A stretch of 32,000 bases of DNA from Candidatus Heimdallarchaeota archaeon B3_Heim. Lineage in GTDB: Archaea > Asgardarchaeota > Heimdallarchaeia > Hodarchaeales > Hodarchaeaceae. This document shows, piece by piece, positions 11,568 to 14,242 of the stretch. The DNA is taken from positions 30,001-62,000 of the forward strand of contig NJBF01000027.1 in NCBI GenBank assembly GCA_003144275.1, written 5' to 3'. The number at the start of each line of letters is the position of its first letter. The stretch's first letter is position 1. The translations under genes were made by a program, and so were the position numbers. A model generated the notes under the pieces. The model had not been told where the DNA came from, ran no database searches, and was given only the letters and a program-made list of their open reading frames with translations.

Positions 11568-11903
11568 TTATTCAGACCAAACCCAATTACACTTAACACA
11601 TTGGTAATAGGTGGTTGTTTCCCATTCTTCCTTTTTTCGATCTTCAGCTTCCCAATAACGAGCTTCAGTATGATTACATTTTGGACAAATAACACGAGCT
11701 GTCGGCCGGACATCAAACTCGTCTTCAATCACAGTTAGTCGATCTTTCTCGGTATGATCAATTTTCGATTTTATCTGGTATGATTGGTTCTTAAATTCTT
11801 CTTTGGATTCTTCCTTGCATACTTTACAGTACAGAGAGATTGAACCGTCATCTTTTCTATTTGGCTGAAGTAAGGCACCACAATTTTCGCAAAAATTAAC
11901 CAT
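11568..11903 (-). CDS. Transcription factor S / RpoM-family zinc-ribbon protein with a non-canonical hairpin
   Basis: N-terminal FCENCGALL...CKVC and C-terminal CPKC...CVKC zinc ribbons; QTRSADE motif replaced by EDRKKEE. Confidence 0.85.
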   Translation of the reverse strand: MVNFCENCGALLQPNRKDDGSISLYCKVCKEESKEEFKNQSYQIKSKIDHTEKDRLTVIEDEFDVRPTARVICPKCNHTEARYWEAEDRKKEEWETTTYYQCVKCNWVWSE

Positions 11904-12067
11904 AAGAATCACTCATTCGAAGGAATGTTTAGTATCCACCTTTTATTAGGTTTCTAAGCATCGAAGACTGATTTAAGATGAGATTTTCTAAGTATTATCA
12001 TTCTCCCCTTTTTAAAGCTATAGTAACAAACTATCAATGATGAGGATGGGGCCGATGAGAAACATCA

Positions 12068-13120
12068 TCAAATTGCATCTGTTACTTCGGATAAAGTGAA
12101 TATACATTTTGTACCTTTTCCCCCAGCACAGAGTGGATCCTCTTCCATTTGAAATTGTTTGTTAAGGACTTCAGAAGCATAACCACTCCACATCTGTCCT
12201 AAAAAGCGACAAAAAGACAAATTTGACCCTCTTTCTCCCAGACCACAAATTTCAACCGAGCCATAGAATAATAACTCATCTAATTCCTCTATTGGGAGTA
12301 GACCAATTCCTTTAAGCAATTGATGATTCTTCAATTCGGGGAATTCTAGGCGTATATTTCTTACCATTATCTCGCCTATTTGATGTGCATACTCACTTAA
12401 TTTTTCAGAATTATCAATATTGATATAGAAAAGCTCAAGAATCTTCAATGGTTTATCTGCTATGTCTTTTCTTTCCAATAAAGATGGTAAATTTTCACCG
12501 ACAACTATTCTTGTCGCCTCAATTAAAAACCTAGCAGCATCCTGTGCTCGGATTCCAGTGCCTAGAATAGGTTCCAGAAGAACTGTAATTGACAATGAAA
12601 CTCCTGGAATTTCCTCTTCTGTACCAATTACCTCTGCAAATACGTCTTCTGCAGCACGAAATTGTATTTCATACGTAAAACGAGGAGATATTGTCTCTGA
12701 ATTCGTAAACGATGCTTGTACATTAGTGCCCATAAATGCATATCCTAAACCTTTCACAACAATAAGCAAGAGCCTTTTTACAAGCTTTTCCTCCTTTTCA
12801 GAGGAGGAACGCCATATTCTTCCCTTTCCAAGATGGATCGTTCCAATTCGGGTATCCTCCTTCCAATCGATTTCACAGGGAGAAAAACCCAGAGAGGCAA
12901 GAAACAATTTTGCTTGAGCTGTAGGGTTATCACCAGCTGAAAGAGTGAAAGTTTCCCTCACAAGAGGAAGAATGATTGCTTCTAGTGCTTTTTCTCTTTC
13001 AGTTTTTTCAATTTGCTCTAAAAGCTCCTTAGCTATGTTCAATACTGATAAACCTAAGAATCTTTTTACCCGTACTCCGACAATCCCTTCTGAAAATCCA
13101 GTAGTCTGTTTCTCAGTCAA
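12068..13120 (-). CDS. V4R-domain-containing protein
   Basis: C-terminal C...CRFLGQMWSGYASEVL....EEDPLCAGGKGTKCIFTL is the V4R Cys pattern; the N-terminal half looks like a second, Cys-less alpha/beta unit. Confidence 0.65.
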   Translation of the reverse strand: MTEKQTTGFSEGIVGVRVKRFLGLSVLNIAKELLEQIEKTEREKALEAIILPLVRETFTLSAGDNPTAQAKLFLASLGFSPCEIDWKEDTRIGTIHLGKGRIWRSSSEKEEKLVKRLLLIVVKGLGYAFMGTNVQASFTNSETISPRFTYEIQFRAAEDVFAEVIGTEEEIPGVSLSITVLLEPILGTGIRAQDAARFLIEATRIVVGENLPSLLERKDIADKPLKILELFYINIDNSEKLSEYAHQIGEIMVRNIRLEFPELKNHQLLKGIGLLPIEELDELLFYGSVEICGLGERGSNLSFCRFLGQMWSGYASEVLNKQFQMEEDPLCAGGKGTKCIFTLSEVTDAI

Positions 13121-13705: not shown

Positions 13706-14242
13706 CTATCGATTTAGCTCAATAATGGAAATTGCCATGTGCTCAAATGTTTCTTGAATATGATCCCCAGTTTTTGCCGAAGTTTCAAAAAAATGTGCGA
13801 CCTTGTAAGCAGTCTGTGCTTTTTGCCCTTCTGATGTTGAAATTTGCCGTTCATCAATTAAATCATTCTTATTTCCTACTAAATACAATGTTGCAATTGG
13901 AGAATATTTCCTGAGCTGTTCTTGCCAGAGTGGTATCTTTTCTAATGTATCTGGACGAGTAATGTCATAAACTAGCAGGGCACCAGTTACCCCTTGAAAA
14001 AAGACACGTCCAACTTGAGTGGATCTCGTATGGCCCCCCAAATCCCAGATTTGTAGCCCAACCCTAACATCTTTTCCGTCTAAAGTTAAATTCACAGATT
14101 TTACAAGAAAGTTTGCACCAATGGTAGCCATATAATCGCCTGGAAAACGGTCTTCCACATAACGGAGCACCATGGAAGATTTTCCGACACGAAACTCACC
14201 AAGAAGTAATATCTTGGCGAGAAAGTTGAAGTTTAACGACAT
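13706..14242 (-). CDS. Rab-like small GTPase (atypical G3 box)
   Basis: G1 GEFRVGKS, G2 TIG, G3 WDLGGH, G4 GNKND, G5 ETSAK; no C-terminal prenylation motif. Confidence 0.92.
   Translation of the reverse strand: MSLNFNFLAKILLLGEFRVGKSSMVLRYVEDRFPGDYMATIGANFLVKSVNLTLDGKDVRVGLQIWDLGGHTRSTQVGRVFFQGVTGALLVYDITRPDTLEKIPLWQEQLRKYSPIATLYLVGNKNDLIDERQISTSEGQKAQTAYKVAHFFETSAKTGDHIQETFEHMAISIIELNR

Follow-up and report, generated by a model that had tools for sequence, protein, structure and literature searches.

The zinc ribbon at the C-terminus of the archaeal and eukaryotic factors TFS and TFIIS enters the NTP-entry pore of RNA polymerase, where a hairpin Arg and an Asp-Glu pair work on backtracked RNA and at metal B. 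An Asp-to-Glu change inactivates TFIIS. Among bacterial proteins, Gfh1 and DksA retain an acidic tip and yet do not stimulate cleavage, while GreA and GreB both cleave. Hodarchaeales, the lineage considered here, form an archaeal order that stands beside eukaryotes in some phylogenies. To our knowledge, TFS4 of Sulfolobales is the sole archaeal TFS paralogue with a demonstrated change of function. Limited to that group and virus-induced, TFS4 has a shorter, acid-free hairpin that carries KKK, and its C-ribbon, strongly positive, faces acidic patches of the funnel (Fouqueau 2017, PMC5715097; Pilotto 2021, PMC8448823). Both TFS4 and tip-swap chimeras indicate that a change of the tip alone can turn a TFS paralogue into a regulator (PMC5715097). 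For TFIIS, a passage of PMC2994637 that cites Jeon 1994 describes cleavage as dependent on the Asp-Glu dipeptide. Two tfs genes each have been listed, without analysis, for a single Lokiarchaeote, a single Thorarchaeote and the Heimdallarchaeote AB_125 (Fouqueau 2017, PMC5715097).

Here we characterize a TFS paralogue with a rebuilt hairpin, termed type A, from Candidatus Heimdallarchaeota archaeon B3_Heim. It is encoded in a stretch of 32,000 nucleotides (contig NJBF01000027.1, positions 30,001 to 62,000 of the forward strand; hereafter the window), in which we distinguish the following features, numbered from the first letter of the window.

11568..11903, reverse strand: reading frame of type A, the TFS paralogue (111 aa with no internal stops; stop codon 11568-11570)
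11817..11891, reverse strand: N-terminal zinc ribbon (C5, C8, C26, C29), from the translation, with invariant Cys and a PF02150 match of 20.1 bits
11589..11687, reverse strand: C-terminal TFIIS-type zinc ribbon (C73, C76, C102, C105), from PF01096 and invariant Cys
11598..11654, reverse strand: rebuilt hairpin WEAEDRKKEEWETTTYYQC, residues 84-102
11909..11914, reverse strand: Shine-Dalgarno-like GAGTGA, at -11 to -6 relative to the ATG at 11903
11939..11950, reverse strand: TATA-box-like CCTAATAAAAGG, a candidate promoter of its own recognized in the sequence, 36-47 nt 5' of the ATG
12068-13120, reverse strand: 350-aa protein with a V4R-like C-terminus, directly 5' of type A, no Pfam match
13706-14242, reverse strand: Ras/Rab-like small GTPase, farther 5' of type A

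A GTG at 11912, three codons 5' of the ATG at 11903, likewise opens the type A frame. We place the start at the ATG, because homologues begin MV[NSK]FC and because the Shine-Dalgarno-like GAGTGA lies 6-11 nt 5' of it; in most orthologous type A loci, GGTGA occurs at an equal distance from the ATG. The TATA-like CCTAATAAAAGG is kept in the four nearest orthologous loci (L008-L011) and sits inside a 165-nt gap to the next gene, and gap and box together suggest a separate type A transcript.

The predicted protein falls, with near certainty, into the TFS/Rpb9/A12.2/C11 family. Its C-ribbon matches PF01096 at 30 bits (cut-off 21; residues 72-109), while the PF02150 score of the N-ribbon, a match recorded for most homologues, lies under the 25.2 cut-off. 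All eight zinc-ribbon Cys are invariant in the 29 members of the family formed by type A and its sub-paralogue type B (described below), in keeping with the original prediction that both ribbons are intact. With the archaeal TFS equivalog model TIGR01384, type A reaches 57.4 bits and thus stays under the 64.75 cut-off. In an AlphaFold2 model built on the family alignment (mean pLDDT 70), a flexible linker joins the two ribbons, with the hairpin predicted as strands 80-87 and 96-102 and a loop of residues 88-95. When this model was compared with the PDB by Foldseek, chains of C11, Rpb9 and A12.2 were at the top (E 1e-6 to 1e-4), a result that confirms the superfamily and discriminates nothing finer.

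Residues 84-102 read WEAEDRKKEEWETTTYYQC, as had been reported for this hairpin, and are one residue longer than the canonical WQxQTRSADExxTxFYxC. Alignment with the canonical TFS of the same genome (WQLQTRSADEASTTFYRC; 40% identity) places E92-E93 of type A at the canonical Asp-Glu, K90-K91 at Ser-Ala, R89 at the conserved Arg and D88 at Thr, with E85 and E87 at the two canonical Gln and one extra residue after the hairpin acids. The substitution of Glu for Asp, the two Lys before it and the single-residue extension of the loop, all noted previously from the sequence, were recovered in this alignment. Some type A orthologues have two extra hairpin residues (RKKTEEWE, RRKQEEWE). With six acids and three bases the type A hairpin has a net charge of -3, compared with 0 for the canonical hairpin; the C-ribbon of type A has a net charge of -1. 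Residues invariant in and around the hairpin over the 29 sequences of types A and B are Y83, W84, E85, R89, K91, E93, W94 and E95. The residue at 92, which corresponds to the catalytic Asp, is Glu throughout type A, whose sequences all present an EE pair, whereas type B has E, Q, D, S or P there; an extra residue directly before it is tolerated in some type A sequences. Because position 92 varies, the signature of the family is best given as R-x-K-x-E-W-E, and not as "EE replacing DE". This motif is near-invariant in at least 25 clusters that share just 61-93% overall identity, which, with the low median dN/dS given below, speaks against a chance feature.

Searched with Pfam over its full 3.95 Mb, the assembly (94% complete) yielded three TFS-like genes: a canonical TFS, type A and a third paralogue of 146 aa. 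The canonical gene, on contig C57 (L001:1282-1626), encodes 114 aa with the hairpin YWQLQTRSADEASTTFYRC (QTRSADEA) and scores 76.1 bits with TIGR01384, above the cut-off of 64.75. The original prediction regarded the gene in the window as a paralogue, to be abandoned if it proved the only TFS in the genome and stimulated cleavage normally; the copy on C57 removes that objection and leaves type A as one member of a set. Of the 22 genus genomes, 21 carry a canonical TFS. Two incidental features of the canonical genes were observed: a fibrillarin-like gene, read from its ORF translation, adjoins the copy on C57, and in the genus (L001, L045-L056) the first zinc knuckle is FC[ED]CG, a C-x-C spacing that is one residue short of the usual C-x-x-C. 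Type B, a sub-paralogue of type A with 49-57% identity to it, occurs in eight genomes of the genus (L037-L044), B3_Heim not being among them. It comprises 115 aa, with a basic insert in the N-ribbon (e.g. KQRKRDMKK) and hairpins of the form RRK[QDESP]EWES, such as YWEGENRRKQEWES and YWEAGDRRKSEWES. Genomes with type B have four TFS-family genes, and genomes of the family as a whole carry three to four.

The type A hairpin is confined to a narrow phylogenetic range. Homologues in a protein database fell into 27 clusters, 65-93% identical to type A, every one of them derived from MAGs of Hodarchaeales or Heimdallarchaeota. Among 83 Heimdallarchaeia genomes, type A (61-100% identity) was present in 21 of the 22 of its own genus/family, and no close relative occurred in any other family. 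Across 400 Asgard genomes, scores above 150 bits with the family profile were confined to the same Hodarchaeales group plus one contig in a further genome, and a motif scan of 185,579 GTDB species genomes returned solely these loci, of which 20 were type A and 8 were type B; the record titles give Hodarchaeota or Heimdallarchaeota, apart from a few discordant submitter labels. Three representatives were found at E < 1e-30 among 1.84 billion cluster representatives. Viral contigs yielded no relatives, and we accordingly discarded a viral origin of the gene.

Two exceptions to this distribution probably reflect assembly and binning. In G180, a genome of another Asgard family, a type-B-like gene lies on a contig of 4.5 kb (C13; L057), and the gene next to it shares 53% identity with one from Hodarchaeales, as against 23-28% with genes of G180's own genus; judged by these neighbour-gene identities the contig is probably mis-binned, and horizontal transfer into G180 was rejected. 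Contamination of the G180 genome is 7%. The single genus genome that lacks type A, G048, lacks the conserved neighbour gene as well, so that the locus is probably unassembled there, and a true loss was likewise set aside.

The type A gene is flanked on its 5' side by the 350-aa protein, for which two leads suggest a V4R domain: our reading of its C-terminal motif, and an ESM-Atlas search in which its own cluster scores 0.96 and PF02830 is on 15% of members. On the 3' side, in convergent orientation, are genes for a DUF6125 protein and a cytidylate-kinase-like protein. The order V4R-like, type A, DUF6125, cytidylate-kinase-like is found in 17 of 21 type A loci, all of one genus; in the sister Hodarchaeales family the V4R-like gene lies elsewhere and this synteny is absent. 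The neighbourhood of the gene in the window contains no transcription, defence or mobile genes. A functional link of type A to its neighbours was considered and rejected, since the synteny is limited to the genus, the sister family differs, and the 165-nt gap and TATA-like box intervene.

Rates of change were compared over 13 genomes from which both type A and canonical TFS were recovered. Mean pairwise identity was 70.8% for type A vs 72.3% for canonical TFS, and median dN/dS was 0.065 for type A (11 usable pairs) vs 0.118 for canonical TFS. Column conservation in type A was 0.75 in the N-ribbon, 0.72 in the linker, 0.87 in the C-ribbon and 0.91, the highest value, in the hairpin; the corresponding values for canonical TFS were 0.80, 0.75, 0.89 and 0.96. 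Type A is thus under strong purifying selection that is centred on the hairpin, and it behaves like a core gene, unlike a fast-evolving defence gene. The rebuilt hairpin is the business end of the protein, held nearly as tightly as the catalytic hairpin of canonical TFS. Since this altered hairpin is both fixed and selected, a changed function is likely. To that extent the functional reading offered originally is sustained: there is a paralogue, with a fixed and selected hairpin, in which function has probably shifted. The part of that reading modelled on TFS4 is not.

An allosteric inhibitor of the TFS4 type, induced by stress or infection, would wedge in the funnel and open the DNA-binding channel of the polymerase. 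It is the least probable of the explanations we weighed, and we regard it as very improbable, even granting that type A is a TFS paralogue with basic residues beside the tip and that TFS4 itself sets a precedent for inhibition. The TFS4 model NF047723 scores 20.7 bits on type A vs a cut-off of 120 bits, and TFS4 (7oqy_Y) ranks just 50th among the Foldseek matches of the type A model. The short, acid-free KKK tip and the positive C-ribbon of TFS4 are both absent from type A, which has a longer hairpin with Glu-Glu kept and net charges of -3 (hairpin) and -1 (C-ribbon). Its evolution is as slow as that of canonical TFS, it has no relatives on viral contigs, and no defence or mobile genes lie nearby. 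The Lys residues ahead of the acids, first pointed out in support of the analogy with TFS4, are real as an observation and fail as a TFS4 character. Type A arose independently of TFS4, in a different phylum.

The relationship of types A and B to other members of the family was assessed by aligning 81 sequences (113 columns) and building a tree with IQ-TREE (LG+C20), from which C11, A12.2 and TFIIS were left out. Types A and B form one clade (99/95), the canonical TFS of the genus a separate clade (100/97), and the Rpb9 sequences a clade of their own (96/100), which does not join A+B in the maximum-likelihood tree. In the full tree, A+B nest (UFboot 92-99) among other non-canonical paralogues: P0032, a metagenomic protein whose tip reads RRYEGE; P0035 and P0072, both from a single "Odinarchaeota" MAG, with tips KVEEFET and KAEEYER; and second TFS paralogues of a sister Hodarchaeales family (L066 in G069 and L067 in G070), with tips TKEDFEE and QTDEYDE. 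After removal of the hairpin columns, the surviving clades are A+B (SH-aLRT 96) and A+B+P0032 (90). A profile of the other non-canonical proteins gives type A 100-108 bits and canonical TFS 93-100 bits. We therefore gave up the idea of an ancient, Asgard-wide non-canonical clade, which apart from P0032 dissolves once the hairpin columns are gone and has little profile support. The acid-aromatic-acid tip shared by these Asgard paralogues may reflect either common descent or convergence.

Topology tests, made over the same 113 columns, bear on two further origins. Constraining A+B to join the canonical TFS of the genus cost a delta lnL of 23.3 (AU p = 0.107). An origin of type A by recent duplication of that TFS is neither rejected nor supported, and the protein has too little length for the event to be dated. 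Constraining A+B to join Rpb9 cost 12.4 (AU p = 0.295). That tree is not rejected, and its penalty is smaller than the 23.3 incurred by the union of A+B with the genus's canonical TFS. It would suit an Rpb9-like, stably bound polymerase subunit, an archaeal counterpart or relative of eukaryotic Rpb9 whose C-ribbon, on the funnel rim, would tune trigger-loop dynamics and fidelity without entering the pore. The hairpin string R-[RK]-K-E-E does resemble the loops of insect and plant Rpb9 (RRAEEE, RGEEG), and the best full-length PDB sequence matches of type A are Rpb9 chains, led by Drosophila Rpb9 (9mu7_I, 41 bits), in which RRAEEE stands against RRKEEWE. This last match is non-specific, and we dropped the argument from it to an Rpb9-like identity, since these Rpb9 chains give a higher score (46-49 bits) with the genome's own canonical TFS. 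We consider a subunit of this kind unlikely, if somewhat less so than a TFS4-type inhibitor: the maximum-likelihood tree keeps Rpb9 as its own clade, the family profile gives archaeal TFS 60-88 bits and Rpb9 about 50, and the Rpb9 loop differs in length and varies among the seven Rpb9 sequences sampled, whereas the type A loop is near-invariant. The A/B family is, moreover, limited to one family of one order.

The reading that we prefer, at a probability of roughly 0.45, is that type A, to judge from its sequence, acts as a secondary-channel factor with a changed activity that is probably other than standard cleavage. By homology, its N-ribbon and linker would dock on the lobe/jaw of the RNA polymerase and its C-ribbon would reach into the funnel and pore for NTP entry, where canonical TFS also acts. 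There the hairpin would present the Arg of the QTR motif (R89) and the second acid (E93), both kept, with basic residues for the Ser-Ala pair and an added, invariant Trp-Glu that lengthens the loop. With a longer, Trp-bearing tip in which the first acid appears non-essential, the canonical Asp-Glu geometry at metal B would presumably not be reproduced, and from such a tip we infer a modulator of the secondary channel. Type A would then compete with TFS and alter backtracking, cleavage or elongation, and would not serve as a standard stimulator of cleavage. The site at which it binds and its effect on the polymerase are the conjectural portion of this scheme.

Some metal-B-dependent cleavage by type A is nonetheless possible, because EE is present in every sequence together with the conserved Arg; comparison with the acidic-tipped factors of bacteria indicates that retained acids would predict neither cleavage nor its absence. 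A specialised TFS isoform that is still a cleavage factor, differing from canonical TFS as GreA and GreB differ, is accordingly the most serious competitor, which we judge somewhat improbable. In such an isoform metal B would be held by E92-E93, or by E93 and E95 as E-W-E, and the Trp would contact backtracked RNA or the trigger loop to confer another substrate preference, cleavage increment or set of conditions. The invariance of R89, E93 and E95, a hairpin constrained much like the catalytic one (0.91 vs 0.96), and slow evolution befitting a housekeeping factor are all consistent with it. Some type B sequences, however, have Q, S or P at the equivalent of the Asp, a position that also tolerates an adjacent insertion; the loop, extended by 1-2 residues, has a bulky Trp at its tip; and type A falls under the equivalog cut-off of TIGR01384. 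The Asp-Glu dipeptide of TFIIS is also reported as critical, as cited in PMC2994637. We retain a modulator with altered activity as the more probable role of type A.

Other members of the family were noted in the course of these searches. The third TFS-family gene of B3_Heim, termed type C (G000 contig C88:88688-89128, equivalent to L003:1249-1689 on the plus strand; 146 aa), occurs, at 60-94% identity, in 21 of the 22 genus genomes. It has an intact N-ribbon and, in the linker, an invariant EPPP[IV]P; in the C-ribbon a C-x-H...C-x2-C site replaces the four Cys, and we call this third paralogue degenerate. The invariant hairpin FQGFYQFSxGDEASRKYW of type C retains Asp-Glu. The only significant PDB sequence matches of type C are Rpb9 chains (26-28 bits), and in a quick tree it formed a very long branch beside Rpb9 (SH-aLRT 86), a placement left unresolved by the careful tree. 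In several other Heimdallarchaeia families, B3_Heim being free of them, we also observed "half-TFS" ORFs of about 90 aa that match the N-ribbon and linker alone (for example G074:C173:7706-7885 and G071:C123:19597-19773) and resemble TFS2 of Crenarchaeota.

Since the proteins come from Hodarchaeales, they bear on the origin of eukaryotic TFIIS, Rpb9, A12.2 and C11. It is conceivable, although we think it a long shot, that Hodarchaeales already split TFS into a catalytic factor and at least one non-canonical paralogue bound to the polymerase; types A and B, with their Rpb9-like R-R-K-E-E loop, or else type C, would then be sister to Rpb9 within archaea or its forerunner in function. Were this true, the "only eukaryote-specific" subunit of Pol II would have begun in archaea. 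A literature search, in which "TFS" was confounded with "TFs", found no description of this hairpin class, nor is there one in Eme 2023. What distinguishes type A is that its tip represents a second, chemically different solution, lengthened and acidic-aromatic where that of TFS4 is shortened and basic, and that it has been fixed under strong selection across a whole family of Hodarchaeales. It thus provides a natural tip-swap experiment on the secondary-channel factors that tune archaeal and eukaryotic polymerases.

Among known systems, type A may first be set beside canonical TFS (TIGR01384; e.g. 1qyp, the C-domain of Thermococcus celer TFS). The two share a length of about 110 aa, two four-Cys ribbons, the I-x-H linker and the PF01096 C-ribbon, and type A keeps the hairpin Arg and the second Glu; it departs from canonical TFS, whose hairpin follows Q-T-R-S/G/R-A/G-D-E, in having E[DN]R[RK]KEEWE for QTRSADE, in a loop that is 1-2 residues longer and in a net hairpin charge of -3 vs 0. 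The other non-canonical Asgard paralogues resemble type A in their two-ribbon build and K/T-[ED]-[ED]-[FYW]-[ED] tip. With Rpb9, type A has in common the two-ribbon architecture and a non-canonical loop of the form R-[RK]-x-[ED]-[ED], and it differs from Rpb9 in a loop one residue longer and an invariant Trp. As with TFS4, a TFS paralogue retained alongside the canonical gene combines two intact ribbons with a changed tip; unlike that of TFS4, the type A tip is longer and acid-rich.
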